Both the position numbers and the translations under genes were made by a program. Shown here in pieces: positions 5,932-39,266 of a DNA stretch of 64,000 nt (within the stretch, counting starts at the first letter, position 1; the number at the start of each line of letters is the position of its first letter). Source of the stretch: an uncultured Actinomycetota bacterium (GTDB lineage: Bacteria; Actinomycetota; Actinomycetes; CAVWCF01); the NCBI GenBank assembly GCA_963753435.1, contig CAVWCF010000001.1, positions 704,554 through 768,553 of the forward strand, given 5' to 3'. Below the pieces are notes generated by a model. It was not told the origin of the DNA, searched no databases, and saw nothing but the letters and a program-made list of their open reading frames with translations.

Positions 5932-7269
5932 GTGGAGCAGATTCTCCAGACCATCCTGGCCGGTGCGAATGATCCGGCCGCGTACGCGGCGCTGCCCGTG
6001 CCGGAGTCCTACGCAGCCATCACGGTGCACGCCGATGAAGTCGACATGTTCGCCGGCACACCGACCCGCGAGCGGGACCCGCGCCAGTCCCTGCACCTCG
6101 ACGAGGTGCCCGTCCCGGAACTGGGCCCGGGTGAGGCGCTGGTCGCGGTGATGGCCAGTTCCATCAACTACAACACGGTTTGGACTTCCATCTTCGAACC
6201 GGTCCCCACCTTCGACTTCCTCAAGCGGTACGGGCGCATCCACCCACTGGCCGCCCGCCACGATCTGCCGTACCACGTGATCGGATCGGACCTGTCCGGC
6301 GTGGTGCTGCGCGTCGGCGTCGGGGTGAGCGCCTGGAAACCGGGAGACGAGGTAGTCGCGCACTGCCTGTCAGTGGAGTTGGAGCACCCGCAGGGTCACG
6401 ACGACACGATGCTGGACCCCGAACAACGGATCTGGGGCTTCGAGACGAACTTCGGCGGGCTGGCGCAACTGGCCCTGGTCAAGTCCAATCAGCTCCTGCC
6501 CAAGCCGGCGCATCTGACCTGGGAAGAGGCCGCCGCGCCCGGACTGGTCAACTCCACTGCCTACCGCCAGTTGGTATCGACCCACGGCGCCGGGATGAAG
6601 CAAGGCGACGTCGTGCTGATCTGGGGCGCCTCCGGCGGCCTGGGGTCGTACGCGACGCAAATGGCCCTCAACGGGGGCGCGACGCCGATCTGTGTCGTCT
6701 CAAGTCCGGAGAAGGCCGAGATCTGCCGCAGCCTGGGCGCCGAACTCATCATCGACCGGGCCGCTGAGGACTACCGCTTCTGGAAAGACGAGAACACCCA
6801 GGACCCCAAGGAGTGGAAGCGGTTCGGTGCCCGTATCCGGGAACTAACCGGTGGCGACGACGTGGACATCGTCTTCGAGCACCCGGGACGGGAAACCTTC
6901 GGCGCGTCGGTTTACGTCGCACGCAAGGGCGGCACCATCGTCACCTGCGCTTCCACCTCCGGGTTCCTGCACCAGTACGACAACCGCTACCTCTGGATGA
7001 ACCTCAAGCGGATCATCGGCAGCCACTTCGCCAACTACCGCGAGGCGTGGGAGGCAAACCGACTGATCGCCCGCGGCCGGATCCACCCGACCCTGAGCAA
7101 GGTGTTCCCGCTTGCCGAGACCGGGCAGGCCGCGCTGGAGGTGCACAGCAATCGCCACCAGGGCAAGGTCGGGGTGCTCTGCCTGGCCCCGGAGGAAGGC
7201 CTTGGGGTCCGCGATGAGGCCCTCCGCGAGCGACACCTGGACTCGATCAACCGCTTCCGCGACGTCTGA
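5932..7269 (+). CDS. ccr: Crotonyl-CoA carboxylase/reductase.
   Basis: GTG start after an AGGAGG RBS. 445 aa. Long stretches match the Ccr family: MEQILQTILAGANDPAAYAALPVPESYAAITVH..., SINYNTVWTSIFEPVPTF, IWGASGGLGSYATQMALNGGA. Confidence 0.9.
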   Translation: MEQILQTILAGANDPAAYAALPVPESYAAITVHADEVDMFAGTPTRERDPRQSLHLDEVPVPELGPGEALVAVMASSINYNTVWTSIFEPVPTFDFLKRYGRIHPLAARHDLPYHVIGSDLSGVVLRVGVGVSAWKPGDEVVAHCLSVELEHPQGHDDTMLDPEQRIWGFETNFGGLAQLALVKSNQLLPKPAHLTWEEAAAPGLVNSTAYRQLVSTHGAGMKQGDVVLIWGASGGLGSYATQMALNGGATPICVVSSPEKAEICRSLGAELIIDRAAEDYRFWKDENTQDPKEWKRFGARIRELTGGDDVDIVFEHPGRETFGASVYVARKGGTIVTCASTSGFLHQYDNRYLWMNLKRIIGSHFANYREAWEANRLIARGRIHPTLSKVFPLAETGQAALEVHSNRHQGKVGVLCLAPEEGLGVRDEALRERHLDSINRFRDV

Positions 7270-7274
7270 CCTAC

Positions 7275-8018
7275 TCAGGCCTTTTCACAGCGCGCAATCA
7301 AGCCCGTCAACGCAGCCGCGACCGCAGCCGGGGTTTCCACCGCGGCCAGATGCCCCGCACCGCGCACGGTGACCCGCTCTACGTCGGCGAGGGCGTCCGA
7401 CATCGCCAGGGCATCGGCCTCGGCCGCGAGGGCGTCCTCGTCGCCCCGGAGCACGAGCGCCGGGCCGTTGAAACCAGCGAGGTCCGCCAGCGAGTCGGGG
7501 CGAGCGGCCATGGCCCGCTGGGCCCAGGCCACGGCCATCGGGTTGGCCGCCGCCACCATGGCGTGAACCTCGGCAACAACGTCGGCGCGATCGCGCTTGG
7601 TGCTCTCCCCCACGAGCGCCGGCTCCACGTCCGCGTGCACGACCGCCAACCCAGCCGACTCCGCCGCAGCGGCGATCCGCTCCCGATTGGCGCGAGCGGC
7701 CGGGGGGTCGGCGGCGGCCTTCGTGTCCAGCAACGCCAGGCCGGCCACGCGCTGCGGGGATAGCCGCAGCAGTTCCATGGCCACGTAGCCGCCCATGCTG
7801 GTGCCGCCCAGGATCACGCGGTGCAGCCCGGCGGCGTCCATTTCGGCCAGGACGGCCTCCGCGTAGGCCGCCAGGCTGGGCGTACCCGACGGCATCGCAG
7901 CCGAGCCGAAGCCCGGGAGGTCCGGGGTGATTACGTCGGCGGCCAACTCCCGGTGCAGGCGGTCGTACATCGCGGCGTGCAGCGGGAACGCGTGCAACAG
8001 AACCAGTGGCGGGGTCAC
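7275..8018 (-). CDS. Alpha/beta-hydrolase fold protein.
   Basis: Has the PLVLLHAFP strand and the GTSMGG nucleophile elbow (GxSxG). Start chosen as the GTG forming a GTGA overlap with the stop of the upstream gene. The track ORF extends to 8171. Confidence 0.6.
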   Translation of the reverse strand: MTPPLVLLHAFPLHAAMYDRLHRELAADVITPDLPGFGSAAMPSGTPSLAAYAEAVLAEMDAAGLHRVILGGTSMGGYVAMELLRLSPQRVAGLALLDTKAAADPPAARANRERIAAAAESAGLAVVHADVEPALVGESTKRDRADVVAEVHAMVAAANPMAVAWAQRAMAARPDSLADLAGFNGPALVLRGDEDALAAEADALAMSDALADVERVTVRGAGHLAAVETPAAVAAALTGLIARCEKA

Positions 8019-18826: not shown

Positions 18827-20101
18827 TCAGGGGGCCGGGTCCGGCTCCCGGATGACGTCAGCGCCGAGCCCGCGCAACTGCGCATCGAAACCCGGATAGC
18901 CGCGGTCGATGTGGTACGCGTCGGAGACCGTGGTCACACCCTCGGCCACCAAACCGGCGACGACGAGCCCGGCGCCGGCCCGGATGTCGGTCGCGCGCAC
19001 CGGAGCACCGGACAGCATCTCCTGGCCGCGGATCACCGCGTGGTGCCCGTCGACGCGAATGTCCGCACCCAGCCGGGCGATCTCGTTGGCGAACATGAAG
19101 CGGGCTTCGAACACGTTCTCGGTCACCAAGGCAGTGCCTTTGGCCACCGCGGACATCGCGATCACCATCGGTTGCAGATCGGTCGGGAATCCGGGATACG
19201 GAAGCGTGACGACGTCCACGGCGCGGGGCCGCTGAGACATCTCCACCGTGAACCCAGCCGGATCCGTAGTCACCGAAGCGCCGGCCGTCACGAGTTTGTC
19301 CAGAGCAACGTCCAAGTGCTCCGCTCGGCCCCGCTCCACCCGCACCCGCCCACCCGTGGTCGCCGCGGCGAACGCCCAGGTTCCGGCAACAATCCGGTCC
19401 GGGACGGCGGTGTATTCCACGGCACTTAACGCGTCCACACCGACGATCTCCAGCGTCGGGGTGCCGATCCCGGAGATCTCGGCCCCCATCGCAACCAGCA
19501 TCTGGCAGAGGTCGACGATCTCGGGTTCGCGCGCGGCGTTATCGATGACGGTGGTGCCCTGCGCCGAAACAGCCGCCATCAACAGGTTCTCGGTTGCGCC
19601 CACCGACGGAAAGTCCAACCAGATCGTCGCGCCGCTCAGGCCGCGCGGGGCACGCGCCCGCAGGTAGCCGTGTTCGCTGGTTACTTCGGCGCCGAGGCGC
19701 ACCAGACCGGCCACGTGCAGGTCCAGGCCCCGCGAGCCGATGGCGTCGCCACCGGGAAGGGCCACGTCGACCTCACCACATCGCGCCAGCAGCGGGCCCA
19801 ACACGCTGATCGACGCCCGCAGGCGCCGGACCAGGTCGTAGTCGGCCTGGTGGCCGGGTCGATCCGGCACTGCCACAGCGAGCGAGGCGGCGTCCACGTC
19901 CAAGTCCACCGCGCAGCCGAGTCGTCGCAACAACTCGGCCATGATCTCGACGTCGAGGATCTGTGGCACCTCATGTAGAACCGACCGACCCTCGGCCAGG
20001 AGCGTTGCAGCCATCAGTTTCAAGACGCTGTTCTTGGCTCCAGTCACCCGAACCGAGCCGTTCAGCTGCGTGCCGCCACGAACCCTGAGTCGCTCCACGC
20101 G
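18827..20101 (-). CDS. murA: UDP-N-acetylglucosamine 1-carboxyvinyltransferase.
   Basis: [42 protein letters not shown] start (VERLRVRGG) gives about 425 aa. The track ORF extends to 20530 with a non-homologous N-terminus. Confidence 0.85.
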
Positions 20102-20149
20102 CTGAGGGTACGGACTCCCCAACGCGGTTGCGGCCGTACGCTGCTGGTC

Positions 20150-20731
20150 ATGGTGAACCTCACGCGCATCTACACCCGCACCGGCGACGACGGCACCACT
20201 GCGCTGGGGGATTTCACGCGCACAGACAAGAACGATGCCCGGCTGGTCGCCTACGCGGACGTGGACGAAGCCAATGCCTGCGTTGGGTTGGTTCTCGTTG
20301 CCGCCGGCCTGGACGCGGACGTGTCCCAGACACTGCTGAGGATCCAGAACGACCTGTTCGACGTGGGTGCTGACCTCTGCACTCCCCCGGCCGAGACCGG
20401 CACACAACTGCGTATCACCCAGGAGTACGTGACCTGGCTGGAATCGCAGATCGACATGTACAACGCCGGGCTCGAGCCGTTGCGTTCGTTCGTGCTGCCC
20501 GGCGGCACCGAAGTCGCAGCCCGGCTGCACCAGGCACGAACCGTCGTACGTCGCGCCGAACGGGCGACCTGGGCCGCCAGCCAGGGATTCCCCGGCCAGG
20601 TGAGCCCGCTAGCCGCGCAGTACCTGAACCGGCTCTCGGACCTGCTGTTCGTGCTGTCCCGGTACGCCAACCGCGAAGCCGGCGATCTGCTTTGGCAGCC
20701 GGGACGGCGGCAGCAGGACGAACCTGCCTAG
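20150..20731 (+). CDS. ATP:cob(I)alamin adenosyltransferase, PduO type.
   Basis: [21 protein letters not shown]...[13 protein letters not shown] is the PduO-type signature. 193 aa. Its stop overlaps the atpC stop by a shared CTAG. Confidence 0.8.
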
Positions 20732-21137
20732 ATCGTCACGTCCGGACGAATCGCCCCGACAGCCCGCAACCGCGCCGACGCGCGGCGTTCGGCTGCCTCC
20801 ATGCCGTCGTCGCCCGCAGCCACTGCCTGCTGGGCGCGCGCTAGCGCCTCCTGGGCCCGCTTGGTGTCGATCTCGCCGGCCAACTCCGCCACGGACGCCA
20901 GGACGCGCACGAAGTCCGCGTCCACCGAGACGAAGCCGCCGTGAACCGCGGCCACAACCGGCTCACCGTCAGCCGGTTTGACCTCCACCACGCCCCCCTC
21001 GGCGAGCGAGGCCAGCAGCGGCTCGTGGCCGGGCAGCACGCCGAGTTGACCATCGGTGGTGCGCACCCCGACGAAGGCCGCCGAGCCTTCCCAAAGCTCC
21101 CGGCTCGGCGTGACGATCCGGACCGTCAACTCGCCCA

Positions 21138-33491: not shown

Positions 33492-33572
33492 CGGCGACTC
33501 CCCCGCTCTGCTCCCGAACGATCAATGCCAACGGCACCGCCGGGATGCCCCCAGGCGGCGCAGGTGCAGGAG

Positions 33573-33782
33573 CTAAGCCTTCTTGCCGAACCGCTTCTCG
33601 AACGCGGCCACGCGGCCACCGGTGTCCAGCAACTTCTGCTTGCCGGTGTAGAAGGGGTGGCACTGGCTGCAGACCTCGACATGGATGATGCCGTTGGCAG
33701 CCGTGCTACGCGTCGTGAAGGTGCTGCCACAGGTGCAGGTCACCTCGGTCACCGCGTAATCGGGGTGGATATCGGACTTCAC
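33573..33782 (-). CDS. rpmE: 50S ribosomal protein L31.
   Basis: [27 protein letters not shown]...[14 protein letters not shown]. 69 aa. Confidence 0.9.
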
Positions 33783-33885
33783 TGAAAGCTCCTAGTCGGG
33801 CACCGGGTCGTCTTCCGGGGTGGAGGACGTGAACCGGAGCACCGGCATTCTGCCACCAGGCCTTGGTCCTGGCGAAATCGCGTTC

Positions 33886-35124
33886 TCAGGCCGAGATGAG
33901 CTCGGATCGCACCGCCGGGGCGGTGCGGGTGCCCCACCGGTTGTCCGTGAGCGATCCCAGCGCCCGTAGCCGGACGGGGATGAGCAGGGCCGCGTGCAGG
34001 AAGCCGTACAGGACGAAGAAGAAGAACTTCGGGTTGCGGGTTCGGTACAGGGCGTAAAGGCAGTGCAGCACCGCCATGATCGCGATGACCGTGAAGTAGA
34101 GGACGAGCACCTCGGGCCCGTAGAGGAAGGCCCGCACAATCGTGGCTGTGACGGCGATGGTGAGCAGCAGCGGCAGGAGGGCCTGAATGAAGACCTCGGT
34201 CGCCATCACTCGGGAAAGCCGAGGCAGGAACGACAGGGTCCACAGCAGCTCGCGGTAGTAGGACTTGTTCCAGCGCAACTGCTGGGTCAAGTAGCTGCGA
34301 ATGTTCGTTGGCGCGCTGGTGATGCAGTGCGCCTGCGGCACGAAGACCGTGCGGAAGCCTTCACCAAGCACCAGGTTCGTCAGATGTCGATCATCGCCGA
34401 ACGTGCACGGAACTCCGCGGAAGGTCTGGCTGACATACCGGGGCCAGACCCGACCCAGCACGTCGCGCCGGTACACGGAGAACGGACCGGAACAGCAGAG
34501 CACCGCGCCGAACAAGGAGTGGGCGGCCCGCTCCTGGTTGAACGCGACCCAGTAGCGCATGTCGATGAGCAGGGTGAGCAGGTTCGTCCGTGCGTTGGAA
34601 ACGCGGACATCGCCGGTGACCGCGCCAACGCGGGCATCGGCGAACGGCTCAATGATCGTCCGGACCCCGTCCGGAGCGATCTGGGTGTCCGAGTCGATGG
34701 TCATGATCAGGTCGCCGCAGACGTGCGGCAGCGCAGCGCTTTGGGCGTGGCGCTTGCCCCGATTCACGTCCGGCAGGTGGATCGTCCAGCCCGGCCGAGC
34801 CGAGTACTCGCTAAGCAGCGGTATCAGGTCCTCGCGGTTCGGTGACAGGTCATCGACCACGTGCACCTCGATCACGCCCGGGTAGTCCTGTGCCAGCAAG
34901 GACTCAAAGCACAGCCGCAAGTCATCCGGGTGCTCGTTGTAGACGGGGATGATGACCGATACGACGGGCCAGGATCCGTGCCACTTCGGCCGTTGCAGCG
35001 TTCGCCGCCAGGATCGGTGCGCCATGCCGACCTGCAGGACGAAGTGCGACACCACCAACACGGTGTAGACGATCAACAGGCCGTCGAGGAAGTTCTTGAC
35101 CACGGTGGCCAGTAGGCCGCTCAC
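33886..35124 (-). CDS. Processive family-2 glycosyltransferase (hyaluronan synthase / NodC / chitin synthase-like) with N- and C-terminal TM segments.
   Basis: VSVIIPVYNE, DxD-type motifs (VVDDLS, IDSDT), QxxRW processivity motif (QQLRWNKS). Flanking TM helices. 412 aa. Stop overlaps the start region of the upstream membrane protein. Confidence 0.75.
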   Translation of the reverse strand: MSGLLATVVKNFLDGLLIVYTVLVVSHFVLQVGMAHRSWRRTLQRPKWHGSWPVVSVIIPVYNEHPDDLRLCFESLLAQDYPGVIEVHVVDDLSPNREDLIPLLSEYSARPGWTIHLPDVNRGKRHAQSAALPHVCGDLIMTIDSDTQIAPDGVRTIIEPFADARVGAVTGDVRVSNARTNLLTLLIDMRYWVAFNQERAAHSLFGAVLCCSGPFSVYRRDVLGRVWPRYVSQTFRGVPCTFGDDRHLTNLVLGEGFRTVFVPQAHCITSAPTNIRSYLTQQLRWNKSYYRELLWTLSFLPRLSRVMATEVFIQALLPLLLTIAVTATIVRAFLYGPEVLVLYFTVIAIMAVLHCLYALYRTRNPKFFFFVLYGFLHAALLIPVRLRALGSLTDNRWGTRTAPAVRSELISA

Positions 35125-36794
35125 GACGCGATCCCTGAGGCGCTAATCAGATCCCGCGCTCGCTGCAGCAGCGCTTCCTGCGGATCGGTATCACCGACGA
35201 CAACGCTGGTGCCAATAACCCGACCACCAACGCTCAGTGGGCCCGATTGCGAACTCGCCATCAGCACCACGCGCTCGTGTCGGATCACGTCGCCGTTTCG
35301 GAACGGCCACTCCCAGGAGAGGACGTGCCACGTGCTGCCGCTAGGAGTACGGAACTCGTAACGCTGGCCGGCGACCCCGCCCAGATCCAACTCCTCGTCG
35401 GCGAGCACCTCGTTGTCATGGAACTGGTAGCAGGACGCCAGCGAGTGTGTCTGCAGTGCCCGTAGGGAATCGGTTGTGATCGAGTCCATCCAGATCGTCG
35501 GTGTCGAGGCGGCTGTCGCGCCTACGCCCACCTGCGGCCGGAACTCATACCGCATCCAGCGCGAGTCCCCGCCGAAGTAGGCGCGTGCCCATTCCTCTTC
35601 ACCAAGAGGTGTCACGGACTCCGCGGTGGCCGACATCCGCTGCACTTGTTCGGCGGCGCTGACGGTGACCGGACCACCCGCGGCGGCACTGCCGCGCATC
35701 TGGCCGACGGTGGCGATGTTCACGGCCATGATCAAGGCAGCACCGGTTCCCAGCGCTAGGAGCCGCAGGACGAGTTGGCGCCGGTCCGGTGCCCCATCTC
35801 GCGGTAGCTGCGTGAAGAGGGGGTTGTCGCCGAACCCGGCCTCTCGGATGGGCCGCCGAACCAGCCCCATCGGGCCGGCCAAAGCGAGCATGAGCAGGAA
35901 GGCCGCGTTCAGGGCCAGCAACCCGGCGACCGGGTGCACCAACCCGATCGCGGCATCCTCACCGACAGCTCGACCGATCACCAGGATCGCGACGATTCGG
36001 ACAACGTTGGCCATGAAGACGACCAACAGGCCCAGTGCGAACCAGGTGAGCCGGGCCCGGCCGGTGCCACGCAGAACGCTGAAGGATGCGGTGGCCACGA
36101 CCGCGAAGGCCGCCATGCCCCCCATCCCCGAGCAGGCGCTGGAAACGACGACATCGAAGGCGCCATCCGGGGCAGGCACCGTGAGCCGCAGGTCACCCTC
36201 CGCGGGCACCGGTGTGGCGATCGGGAAGACGTCCAGAACGCCGCGCACGGCCACGCCGGTTGCATTGGTCAACCCGGTGCTGACCAGTTCCAGCAGCGCC
36301 GCGTAGGGGACGGGCCAGGCCAAGGCGAGCACGGCGATGGACGGGGCGAAAGCGAGCAGTGACCGCACCCCGAACAGGAGCGTGAAGGCCGCAACTGCGG
36401 TGAACGGCAGCAACAGCAGGTCGAAGCGCAGCACGGCGAAGAAGTTGCCGGTGCCATGCCAGGACAGCAGCAAGCCGCCGGAAACCAGCAGGGCGCACAC
36501 GGCGGCCACGTACCAGTCCGCCTTGCCGTGGCGGGCGGTGGAGACGAAGGGGTGGCGGCGAATGGCCACAACGCTCAGCCCCACCGCGATCAACGGAACG
36601 ATGGCCAGTTCCGCCAGGGGCGACTGGTACTGCCACGAAGCCAGCATCGTCGCGAATGAAGCCGCGCCGGCCGCGGCCACGGCCACCCAGGCGAGCAGCA
36701 GGCGCAAGTGCGCCGGGATCAGGTGGGTCGCGGGCGGGTGCAGACTCAGCCCCGATCGCGGAGGCGTGATCGTGACGTCACGCATCACTGACAC
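35121..36794 (-). CDS. Exosortase/archaeosortase-like polytopic membrane protein fused to a C-terminal TM segment and an extracytoplasmic domain of about 200 aa (EpsI-like arrangement).
   Basis: About 8 N-terminal TM helices. Conserved-looking Cys in VVSSACSGMGGM, and an Asn/Arg pair in FMANVVRIVAI; both recall the exosortase signature. An extra TM (LVLRLLALGTGAALIMAVNIATV) precedes a soluble C-terminal domain. 557 aa. Assignment is from motif recognition only. Confidence 0.55.
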   Translation of the reverse strand: MSVMRDVTITPPRSGLSLHPPATHLIPAHLRLLLAWVAVAAAGAASFATMLASWQYQSPLAELAIVPLIAVGLSVVAIRRHPFVSTARHGKADWYVAAVCALLVSGGLLLSWHGTGNFFAVLRFDLLLLPFTAVAAFTLLFGVRSLLAFAPSIAVLALAWPVPYAALLELVSTGLTNATGVAVRGVLDVFPIATPVPAEGDLRLTVPAPDGAFDVVVSSACSGMGGMAAFAVVATASFSVLRGTGRARLTWFALGLLVVFMANVVRIVAILVIGRAVGEDAAIGLVHPVAGLLALNAAFLLMLALAGPMGLVRRPIREAGFGDNPLFTQLPRDGAPDRRQLVLRLLALGTGAALIMAVNIATVGQMRGSAAAGGPVTVSAAEQVQRMSATAESVTPLGEEEWARAYFGGDSRWMRYEFRPQVGVGATAASTPTIWMDSITTDSLRALQTHSLASCYQFHDNEVLADEELDLGGVAGQRYEFRTPSGSTWHVLSWEWPFRNGDVIRHERVVLMASSQSGPLSVGGRVIGTSVVVGDTDPQEALLQRARDLISASGIAS

Positions 36795-36855
36795 CTCCGC
36801 AGGCCGCTACTCCGATCGGATGAATCTTCGGCTCCTGAGGCACCTGACTTGACTG

Positions 36856-37356
36856 TCAGATGGCTGATTGCGAACCGACTGCCCCGCGGCGCCGCAGCCC
36901 GAACCAGGCCGCGGCGGTGAGCAGCATCGAGGCGGGCAGCAGGATCGCGATCGGGGCTTCCGGAAGCTGCGCTGGCGGAGCACACGACGAGACGGTCACC
37001 CGGCCCGAGGTGTTGCTTGTGGCTGAGGTCACATCGTCTGCCCGGACCCGCCACGCCTTGGCGTCCTTGTGTGCGGACACGTTCAATGCGTAGGCGTAGT
37101 CGGTAACCCCGGGCACGGTGGTGACCAGCTGCTGGACCGAGGTGTCCGACCAGCCGGAGTCCTGCCGCTGCAACGTAAGCACGATCTGCGACCCGGACGG
37201 GAAGTTACGCAGCGAGATGGTCCCGCTCAGGGAGTCACCCGCACAGCTTGCGCCCACGGAACGGACCTCTTTGGGTGCCGCCCAGGCGCTTGCCGGCGCG
37301 AACAGGGCGAGCGCAGCGACGATGCCAGCCAGGGCCAACGTGAACGCACGTCGCAT
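36856..37356 (-). CDS. Small secreted protein with a PEP-CTERM-like C-terminal sorting signal (putative exosortase substrate).
   Basis: Sec signal MRRAFTLALAGIVAALALFAPASAWA|APKEV. Mature part has 2 Cys and a Ser/Thr-rich stretch. C-terminus is LPEAP-IAILLPASMLLTAAAWFGL-RRRG: motif, hydrophobic helix, basic cluster. The track ORF starts 9 codons earlier, at 37383. Confidence 0.5.
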   Translation of the reverse strand: MRRAFTLALAGIVAALALFAPASAWAAPKEVRSVGASCAGDSLSGTISLRNFPSGSQIVLTLQRQDSGWSDTSVQQLVTTVPGVTDYAYALNVSAHKDAKAWRVRADDVTSATSNTSGRVTVSSCAPPAQLPEAPIAILLPASMLLTAAAWFGLRRRGAVGSQSAI

Positions 37357-37438
37357 CCGCGGCACCTCCAAAACCTGTCGCAACTCTCTGCAGTTGTCGG
37401 CGCGACGGCTGCGGGGCTTGAGCGCTTAGGGCGGCGAA

Positions 37439-37480
37439 CGCGAGGAGGGCCCCGACCAGCAGGTCGGGGCCCTCCTCGCG
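37439..37480 (-). terminator. Perfect 19-bp GC-rich inverted repeat (4-nt loop) about 14 nt downstream of the rho stop. Putative rho-operon terminator or attenuator hairpin.
   Basis: cgcgaggagggccccgacc-agca-ggtcggggccctcctcgcg. No U-tract follows on the minus-strand transcript, so an intrinsic terminator is not assured. Confidence 0.4.
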
Positions 37481-37493
37481 GACAGGTGTGGTC

Positions 37494-39266
37494 TTACTCC
37501 TCGTCACCGTTCATTCCCGGCGTGGTCTGGGCCACGCTCATCAGGAACTGACGGTTGGTGGGTGCCTCGCGCAGCTTGTTCAGCAGCAACTCAATGGCCT
37601 GCTGTGTCTCCAGTGCATGCAGCACGCGCCGCAGTTTCCAGGTGACCTTCAACTCGTCGGAGCCCATGAGGAGCTCTTCCTTGCGGGTGCCGGAGGAGTC
37701 CACATCCACGGCCGGGAAGATGCGCTTGTCGGCCAGCCGCCGGTCCAGCTTGAGCTCCATGTTTCCGGTGCCCTTGAACTCCTCGAAGATGACCTCGTCC
37801 ATCTTTGACCCGGTCTCCACCAGCGCGGTGGCCAGCACCGTTAGGGAGCCACCGTTCTCGATGTTGCGGGCCGCACCGAAGAAGCGCTTGGGCGGGTACA
37901 GGGCGCTGGAGTCGACGCCACCGGACAGGATTCGCCCGGACGCGGGTGCCGACAGGTTGTAGGCCCGCCCCAGGCGGGTCATGGAGTCCAAAAGAACTAC
38001 GACGTCGTGGCCCATCTCGACCAGCCGCTTGGCGCGTTCGATCGCCAACTCGGCAACCGTGGTGTGGTCATCGGCAGGACGGTCGAAGGTCGAGGAGATG
38101 ACCTCACCCTTGACGGTGCGCTGCATGTCGGTGACTTCTTCGGGACGCTCGTCCACGAGGACCACCATCAGGTGGACCTCCGGGTTGTTCTCGGTGATCG
38201 CGTTGGCGATGGACTGCAGCACCATCGTCTTGCCGGCCTTCGGGGGCGAGACGATCAGGCCGCGCTGACCCTTGCCGATCGGCGCCACGAGGTCGATGAC
38301 TCGAGTGGTCAAGTCGCTGCTGGCCGTCTCCAACCGCAGCCGTTCGTTCGGGTACAGCGGCGTCAACTTGCTGAAGTCAACTCGGTCCCGGACCCCGTCC
38401 GGGGCCAGGCCGTTGACCGTGTCCACCCGGACGAGCGGGTTGAACTTCTCGCGGCGCTCACCCTCGCGCGGCTGTCGCACGGCCCCGGTGAGCGCATCGC
38501 CCTTGCGCAGCCCCATGCGGCGCACGAGGCCCATCGGGACATAGCAGTCGTCCGGGCCCGGCAGGTAGCCGCTGGTACGCAGGAATCCGTAGTTCTCCCG
38601 GATGTCGAGGATGCCGGCGACGGGCACCAGCACGTCGTCCTCGCCCAGAACTGGCTCATCGTCGCGACCTCGGCGGGCGCCCCGATCGCGGTCGCGGTCT
38701 CGGTCCCGACCCCGGTCGCGGTCACGGCCACGACGGCGCCGGCGGTTACCGCGGTCGTCATCACGGGGGCCGCGGGAGTCGTCGTCGCGGGGGCCACGGG
38801 AGTCGTCGTCGCGGTCACGACCACGGTCCCGGTCGCCACGGTCGGACTGGTTGCGGTCTGACTGGTTGCGGTCGGACTGGTTGCGGTCGGACTGGTTGCG
38901 GTCGCGGCCGGACTGCTGGCGGCCGGATTGCCCGTCGTTTCCAGCCTCGCGCTCACGTCCGCGCGGCCGGCTGGCCGCAGTCGACGGCTCATCGCCGGCA
39001 GGGGCGGACTCGCTGCTGCGGGAGTCGGTGCGGGCGGAGTCACGGCGTCCGGACTCGCTGCGCCCTGATTCGCTGCGCGCGGACTCGCTGCGACCAGAGT
39101 CCCGGCTGCCGCCGGCCTCGATGGCCGCAATCAGGTCGCCCTTGCGGAGCCGCTTGGCGCCAGCGATCCCCAGACCGCTGGCCATCTCCTGCAACTCGGG
39201 CAACTTCTTGCTGGACAGAGAGCCGCCGGACTTCGATCCGCGGGTCTCAGTATTGGTGTCGCTCAC
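37494..39266 (-). CDS. rho: Transcription termination factor Rho with an actinobacterial Arg/Asp/Ser-rich N-terminal insertion.
   Basis: N-terminal [11 protein letters not shown]...[30 protein letters not shown]. Long RD/RG/SE low-complexity region. C-terminal RecA-like core with P-loop [13 protein letters not shown]. 590 aa. Confidence 0.9.
38831..38890 (-). repeat. Four tandem copies of a 15-bp unit (gtcggactggttgcg) inside rho, encoding RNQSD repeats. A second 15-bp-period repeat lies at about 39048..39092.
   Basis: Direct reading of the sequence. Copies are perfect except for one mismatch. Confidence 0.6.

Follow-up and report, generated by a model that had tools for sequence, protein, structure and literature searches.

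The chemistry of bacterial exosortases, including the attachment partner of their substrates and any transpeptidase activity, is still open, one reason being that classical XrtA systems combine dozens of targets with large exopolysaccharide (EPS) loci. The XrtG system of the Firmicutes (Lactiplantibacillus plantarum) comprises a Firmicu-CTERM protein, XrtG and two glycosyltransferases (PMC12854382). The only family branch with experimental support is archaeosortase A, for which removal of the helix and addition of an anchoring moiety are documented on the Haloferax volcanii S-layer glycoprotein; sorting signals, as Haft defines them, consist of a signature motif, a transmembrane (TM) segment and an Arg cluster (bioRxiv 10.1101/2023.06.07.544157). 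Here we describe a three-gene cassette in a 64,000-nucleotide stretch of DNA from an uncultured Actinomycetota bacterium (assembly GCA_963753435.1, contig CAVWCF010000001.1, positions 704,554 to 768,553; hereafter the window), which encodes a small secreted protein, an exosortase and a family 2 glycosyltransferase (GT2) resembling hyaluronan synthase (HAS) and NodC. We think it probable that the exosortase acts on a single, dedicated target, and that this is the small protein encoded upstream of it, hereafter called the target. The nearest described architecture appears to be the XrtG / Firmicu-CTERM / glycosyltransferase unit, of which the present cassette would be the analogue in Actinomycetota and Chloroflexota.

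The target gene occupies 36856..37356 of the window on the minus strand (166 aa plus stop, with an ATG start; residues are numbered in this 166-aa form), and the best-conserved portion of its product is the C-terminal tail. This tail has the tripartite layout at the extreme C-terminus of a protein that also carries an N-terminal signal peptide: the signature motif C125-APPAQ-L-P-E-A-P135 (36952..36984, −) is followed by a hydrophobic TM segment of 19 residues, I136-L154 (IAILLPASMLLTAAAWFGL; 36895..36951, −; residues 136-158 form a helix in the structure model), and then by the basic cluster R155-R156-R157 (36886..36894, −), with a Gly next, which is predicted to be the cytoplasmic stop-transfer part of the signal. 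Of all columns in an alignment of 122 family members, just C125, P132, E133, A134 and P135 are invariant. The Cys (codon 36982-36984, −) lies 5-9 residues upstream of PEAP in all 122, the residue before PEAP is V, I or L in 121, and Leu is found at +7/+8, counted from PEAP, in 120-121. Mean entropy is 0.77 bits across residues 125-141 (the motif and the first six helix residues) versus 2.0 in the domain. The family tail, V-P-E-(A)-P-[AS]-[ST]-x-L-L-L-L, parallels PEP-CTERM, although it lacks the Pro-Glu-Pro core of that signal: the core is P-E-A-P in every aligned member, and among distant members found by hidden Markov model (HMM) search it drifts to PEVP, PESP, PETP, DEAP or SEAP. There is no LPXTG motif in the tail, and the window tail gives no TIGR01167 match. 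As far as its sequence goes, the Cys...VPEAP tail may represent a previously undescribed class of sorting signal that current annotation models miss.

The tail and the exosortase are closely linked, whichever of them is used as the starting point. A search of 5.8 billion clusters gave just four direct homologues of the target; one of them, 36% identical and encoded after an amidohydrolase gene, again precedes an exosortase (34% identical to the window's). Lookups of exosortase homologues gave four further contexts in which a small protein, an exosortase and a GT2 follow one another in that order, the small proteins aligning with the one in the window. A scan at one genome per species found 16 exosortase loci, all in metagenome-assembled genomes and mostly from Actinomycetota or Chloroflexota (one is labelled Verrucomicrobiia), and at 12 of these the open reading frame (ORF) directly upstream has C-x(2-8)-[VIL]PE[AV]P, then a helix and basic residues, at its C-terminus, or some variant of this ending. 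Counted over the exosortase-first loci, a tail-bearing gene is directly upstream in 16 of 20. When the target was the query, the exosortase adjoined it in all five distinct loci (L001, L002/L003, L024-L026), and when metagenome contigs were sampled with the tail pattern CAPGx[QD]VPE, which gave 15 loci, an exosortase lay 30-60 nt past the stop in all 13 that have at least 200 nt of downstream sequence. A profile built from 17 members recovered at least 135 proteins of 155-220 aa, without Pfam domains and all named "hypothetical"; three more lookups gave the target, exosortase, GT2 triad each time, and 284 family clusters emerged when 1.84 billion representatives were searched exhaustively by HMM.

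Altogether, target, exosortase and GT2 follow one another in this order at about 35 loci of Actinomycetota and Chloroflexota in unrelated contexts, and the arrangement is conserved at 30-40% protein identity. The window cassette and those of L002-L004 lie between rho and rpmE and that of L001 follows the amidohydrolase gene, while the cassettes of L005-L010, L012-L019, L021 and L024-L026 sit outside both of these contexts; in these two phyla the cassette behaves as one transferable unit. The target is the sole real ORF with such a tail in the 64-kb window. Across L001-L026, some 360 kb of related loci, almost every PE[AVS]P tail adjoins an exosortase or lies within one gene of it, the two tails of L011 being the exceptions, and other tails that pair a helix with Arg residues are few, some of them LPXTG-like. 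A narrower, Actinomycetota-type tail alignment used in a metagenome scan recovered only the same protein family. The initial annotation of this locus had described the PEAP core, the hydrophobic stretch and the RRRG ending as we find them, had placed the gene immediately upstream of an exosortase-like gene on the same strand, and had read the two as an enzyme-substrate pair, raising the question whether their homologues co-occur; the adjacencies above support this reading. It had also named two kinds of observation that would speak against the pairing, homologues that stand beside the enzyme without the tail and a tail that serves as a generic anchor unrelated to exosortase, and we came across neither, PEAP being present in all the aligned members and such tails so few.

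On sequence criteria the downstream neighbour (35121..36794, −) is a genuine exosortase. It lies on the same strand as the target, 70 nt downstream, with a probable start at ATG 36785 (554 aa) preceded by GGAGG, and it matches both PF09721 (E 1.5e-18, 67.6 bits; cut-off 25.7) and TIGR04178 (47.4 bits; cut-off 23). The proposed catalytic triad, which we judge from sequence to be intact, consists of Cys221, Arg266 and His287 (SAC221SG, NxxR266I and H287PVAG, in 557-aa numbering), and these residues are invariant in 24 of 24 aligned exosortases. The enzyme scores under every cut-off of the named Xrt subfamilies (46.3 vs 208 for XrtA, 44.8 vs 313 for XrtV and lower for the others; the models compared were XrtA, B, D, G, K, T, V, W, X and Y, ArtC, D and F, and CrtA), and its clade thus far appears to belong to no named subfamily and to be missed by current models. 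Public copies of the two proteins are annotated as "hypothetical protein" (target) and "exosortase/archaeosortase family protein" (enzyme). In the literature, we found no paper tying an exosortase to Actinomycetota/Chloroflexota cassettes or to NodC/HAS-type synthases, and no description of the three-gene cassette.

Beyond its core of about 8 TM helices, which was also modelled with AF2, the exosortase continues with one more TM helix and then a C-terminal domain (about 195 aa; within 35121-35780, −) that is predicted to lie outside the membrane. Within this domain, C-Y-x-F-H-[GD] is kept in all 22 loci in which the region is intact, and it may form a second functional site. A Pfam scan of the C-terminal 233 aa at E up to 1 returned nothing significant (only DUF1997, E 0.14, with 12.7 bits vs a cut-off of 27), and EpsI (TIGR02914 / PF11984) was absent from the whole exosortase in Pfam and NCBIfam scans at E up to 1, so that the protein does not qualify as an XrtA-EpsI fusion. 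Foldseek returned weak PsbP/LpqN/DcrB-like matches for the C-terminal domain (E 9e-3 or worse), on which we do not build, and the exosortase profile found no relative in the PDB by sequence.

The third gene of the cassette (33886..35124, −), whose first 4 nt are shared with the end of the exosortase gene, encodes a processive, membrane-integrated GT2 of the NodC/hyaluronan-synthase/chitin-synthase type. It scores 346 bits on the NodC model TIGR04242 and, falling below that equivalog threshold (550), is not NodC itself by this measure; it also matches PF03142 (Chitin_synth_2; 84.6 bits, E 8e-24), its closest solved structures are the hyaluronan synthases 7sp7 and 8snc (E 4e-48), and it has the catalytic motifs DSD, GDDR and QQLRW expected of the family. 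The GT2 family varies by lineage, being NodC/HAS-like in the Actinomycetota-type cassettes and of a 480-650-aa PF13632/PF13641 type elsewhere, where some cassettes carry a PMT_2-like GT-C gene behind the GT2. A membrane GT2 is nevertheless present in every cassette whatever its family, and this constancy through changes of family argues for a functional link to a glycan. At or near the GT2 we also noted a large PMT_2-like protein (GT-C fold) at L012 13017-14741 and L025 12084-14360, with similar ones in L011, L018 and L022; in several Chloroflexota and other loci these PMT_2-like proteins share the C-terminal ending '...YPTLY..GAG.ATL....Y.LYR'.

Taken together with the structure model, these features suggest a route by which the target could reach the surface. 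As the sequence and the model indicate, it is exported through Sec by means of its N-terminal signal peptide and stays tethered by its C-terminal helix, with RRR in the cytoplasm and the beta-sandwich domain and C...VPEAP at the outer face of the membrane. The exosortase would then recognise VPEAP, seen as a PEP-CTERM-like motif with one additional Ala, and cut at or near it by way of Cys-Arg-His, so that the helix is removed; the new C-terminus would be released or, more likely, handed to an acceptor. Our best guess for that acceptor is an N-acetylglucosamine (GlcNAc)-type polymer, which the translationally coupled GT2 would synthesise and push out of the cell, and our second guess is a membrane lipid, as in archaeosortase A. 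We favour the GT2 product as acceptor or partner because the GT2 is invariably present and translationally coupled to the exosortase; the outcome in either case would be a protein-decorated surface polysaccharide or matrix. A more specific proposal is that the bipartite signal (Cys plus VPEAP) and the CYxFH module of the exosortase covalently join the sandwich protein to the nascent GlcNAc-type polymer, or that the protein primes or caps the polymer. We give this proposal some chance of being right, albeit a small one; if true, it would supply the first defined acceptor of a bacterial exosortase, in a minimal and reconstitutable three-gene system of a monoderm.

Several points weigh against the assignment of the target to the exosortase, or leave parts of it loose. 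The acceptor is inferred purely from gene linkage, and we know of no cleavage, acyl-enzyme or product that has been observed for any bacterial one-target exosortase system. Even in scans that admitted E up to 10, the window tail matched no sorting-signal model, PF07589, TIGR02595 and Firmicu-CTERM among them, and the tail of one relative reached 16.9 bits on PF07589, under the 20.7 cut-off. L011, L020 and L023, which belong to the most distant exosortase clade, have such a tail gene nearby but not next to the enzyme gene, and in L022, of the same clade, we found none. Degenerate cores occur next to intact-looking exosortases (SEAG in L016, DEAP in L018), and recognition therefore cannot rest on PEAP alone. 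Finally, the proposed relationship leaves the invariant Cys unaccounted for.

The alternative that survives best, which we nonetheless regard as unlikely, takes the target to be an accessory subunit of the GT2 that stays uncleaved and is held by its C-terminus, for instance an Ig-like module that guides or binds the polymer; in that case VPEAP would serve as a structural hinge where the protein meets the membrane, and the exosortase would act on something else or on the polymer pathway. The GT2 is indeed always there and has diverged far less than its partners: its amino acid identity to the L002 protein is 99.7% vs 89% and 89% for the other two, to that of L004 96.8% vs 76% and 81%, and to that of L005 72% vs 42% and 35%. 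This contrast would also suit a slowly changing synthase whose partners, an enzyme domain and a target exposed at the surface, evolve faster. The fold of the target is a generic Ig-like sandwich of the type found in biofilm matrix proteins, adhesins and carbohydrate-binding modules, which would suit an accessory role, and cleavage of the target is inferred. A hinge, however, needs no invariant P-E-A-P that mimics a known exosortase motif, the tightest linkage in the cassette is that between target and exosortase (a 30-70 nt gap), which persists while the GT2 family changes, and the window holds no other candidate target for the exosortase.

The invariant Cys gives rise to a second alternative, in which the tail is processed at this residue by other machinery (lipidation followed by a CPBP/myxosortase-like protease) and its adjacency to the exosortase reflects a shared pathway only. 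The placing of the Cys ahead of PEAP in every aligned member is certainly compatible with this, as is its being the sole Cys in at least 18 full-length members (e.g. P0020, P0025, P0027, P0029, P0035), and invariant-Cys tripartite signals handled by Rce1-like proteases have been described by Haft (bioRxiv 10.1101/2023.06.07.544157). No CPBP/Rce1-like gene stands beside the cassette in any annotated locus, however, and the window tail does not match the MYXO-CTERM model (TIGR03382), on which one relative scores 10.2 bits vs a cut-off of 15.85; moreover, the Cys of MYXO-CTERM-type signals is directly at the helix, whereas here it lies 9-13 residues before it. We therefore consider processing at the Cys by other machinery very unlikely. 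Since some members have no other Cys, an intramolecular disulfide cannot be the conserved role of this residue, and possible roles include modification, a mixed disulfide with the invariant extracytoplasmic Cys of the exosortase, or recognition. Simple coincidence, in which an ordinary bitopic membrane protein happens to lie beside an exosortase gene, is hardly credible: the tail does fail all curated models, and C-terminal hydrophobic stretches with Arg are common in high-GC genomes, but adjacency in about 35 loci across two phyla, the invariance of PEAP in 122 members and the lack of a second such tail in the window all speak against it, and motif invariance together with the tail-first adjacency effectively refutes it.

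We return to the target itself, assigned here to the exosortase, and to the details of its gene and domain. The ORF as listed spans 36856..37383 (−; 175 aa) and opens at TTG, but the true start is almost certainly the ATG at 37354-37356 rather than TTG 37383, because in the sequence a Shine-Dalgarno GGAGG (37365..37369, −) lies 8 nt upstream of the ATG and all homologues (163-166 aa) begin at the Met corresponding to ATG 37356. The protein reads MRRAFTLALAGIVAALALFAPASAWA|APKEV...SSCAPPAQLPEAPIAILLPASMLLTAAAWFGLRRRGAVGSQSAI, where the bar marks the predicted end of a Sec-type signal peptide (aa 1-26; 37279..37356, −). This peptide has a basic n-region (MRR), a hydrophobic core (AFTLALAGIVAALALFAP) and small residues at -3/-1 (ASAWA|AP), it is modelled as a helix over residues 2-22, and it is conserved throughout the family alignments. 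A twin-arginine translocation (Tat) signal, suggested by 'MRRAF', was dropped, since the twin Arg is not kept in relatives (MPRV in P0001, MLRP in P0004). The mature part is a seven-stranded beta-sandwich like those of immunoglobulin (Ig) and fibronectin type III (FN3) domains (aa 27-121, about 95 aa; 36994..37278, −), in which C38 lies within a conserved 'SC[AT]GD', and Pfam and NCBIfam scans of the protein found nothing beyond one spurious 13-bit match. The target has exactly two Cys residues, C38 and C125.

The initial annotation fared less evenly on these details. Its signal peptide with AXA sites is present, while its mature domain of about 130 aa shrinks to about 100 aa once the signal peptide and tail are removed. 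It was right that there are exactly two Cys residues, whereas the disulfide it considered possible is weakened by the invariance of the tail-proximal Cys even where the second is missing. The Ser/Thr patch it pointed out (DVTSATSNTSGRVTVSS) is likewise there, although the O-glycosylation proposed for it has no support beyond composition: the patch is kept only in relatives at least 72% identical, and it sits not in a linker but in the last beta-hairpin, with a predicted local distance difference test (pLDDT) score >85 in the structure model.

The same beta-sandwich also occurs in proteins of 240-410 aa that have a Pro/Thr/Ser-rich linker, a different C-terminal anchor and no PEAP (P0150, P0157, P0158, P0162, P0171, P0173-P0175, P0192-P0194 and others). 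The anchors take two forms, '[LVT]PP[ST]xD[TSA]...GWRLxL...helix...R[KR]xR' and '...LPTI[AL]FSLILLASLG...NVK..RNRN', and they may be another sorting signal. Two target genes, at L010 8025-8282 and L032 4011-4357, are split by an apparent frameshift, which could be an assembly error or mark a pseudogene; in both, the tail and the downstream exosortase are intact.

Conversely, the tail is found on other architectures, namely a 447-aa protein of L011 and family members of 300-560 aa. The distant exosortase clade (28-31% identity) takes in L020 and L023, both Acidimicrobiia-type loci, as well as L011 and L022; where targets were found, they are larger, are encoded apart from the exosortase and end in PEAPW, PEVTW or PESP tails. 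In L011, VPEAPW and IPESP tails terminate larger, unrelated proteins (19664-21007 and 6659-7522), and from its sequence the enzyme-like one of about 447 aa looks like a glycoside hydrolase, perhaps of family GH5. This suggests that some clades of the exosortase system have several targets. We also noted classical sortase-type tails, LPLTG and LAFTG, in the exosortase loci L020 (18483-19598) and L023 (18433-19461), whose organisms appear to use both sortase and exosortase anchoring.

In the window, the cassette lies between rho and rpmE/prfA, within the conserved housekeeping block hom-thrC-thrB-rho ... rpmE-prfA-prmC ... atp operon. Directly after the rho stop codon is a perfect 19-bp GC-rich hairpin (37439..37480, −; -60.3 kcal/mol, z = -5.0, with none of 200 shuffles equally stable) that has no U-tract and probably separates rho from the cassette transcript; a scan of 33500-37600 for consensus promoters and terminators found nothing. 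The rho gene itself (37494-39266, −) encodes a protein whose long N-terminal insertion abounds in Arg, Asp, Ser and Gly and contains repeated SDRNQ and DDSRGPRDD units. N-terminal insertions of this kind are known from Rho proteins of high-GC Gram-positive bacteria.

The cassette provides evidence that exosortase-based surface display reaches two large soil phyla in which sortase/LPXTG anchoring is usually assumed, and it hints at an undescribed protein-polysaccharide surface structure in the organisms that carry it. Among known systems, it shares with XrtG a monoderm host and an operon-like unit of one tagged protein, a dedicated exosortase and a GT2, with one enzyme for one target. It differs from XrtG in most particulars: the exosortase scores 20.2 bits on TIGR03110 (cut-off 102.75) and the GT2 67.3 bits on TIGR03111 (cut-off 363.95), the window tail has no Firmicu-CTERM match, the enzyme carries one more TM helix and the CYxFH[GD]-bearing C-terminal domain (about 195 aa), a single HAS/NodC-like GT2 takes the place of two glycosyltransferases, and the phyla are different.

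Two further signal types resemble ours in part. Archaeosortase A and its PGF-CTERM substrates share with our cassette a homologous Cys-Arg-His enzyme family, but they are archaeal, with a PGF motif and a lipid acceptor, and the exosortase described here is marginal on the archaeosortase models (E 0.004-0.15). MYXO-CTERM-like signals share the invariant Cys, and some of them are one-to-one systems with the enzyme encoded alongside, but that enzyme is a glutamic intramembrane CPBP protease rather than an exosortase, and the Cys abuts the helix.

The PEP-CTERM/XrtA (EpsH) system of Gram-negative EPS producers (Haft 2006, PMC1569441) has a homologous PF09721 enzyme, the subfamily-level similarity of ours being best to TIGR02602 and XrtA. 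It also has a tripartite signal (V-P-E-P there, V-P-E-A-P here) with an [AS][ST]xLL-rich helix and an Arg cluster, and in both systems the signal co-occurs with an exosortase and is linked to polysaccharide biosynthesis genes. In our family, by contrast, one residue is inserted in the core, an invariant Cys lies upstream, and the window tail matches neither PF07589 nor TIGR02595; there is one adjacent target instead of dozens scattered over the genome, we saw no EpsI match and no Wzx/Wzy-type EPS locus, and the hosts are without a classical outer membrane. For the specialist this is an incremental addition to the Xrt catalogue, yet an unusually clean three-gene model, whose single target, single enzyme and single polymer synthase would make exosortase chemistry much simpler to approach than in systems of the XrtA type.

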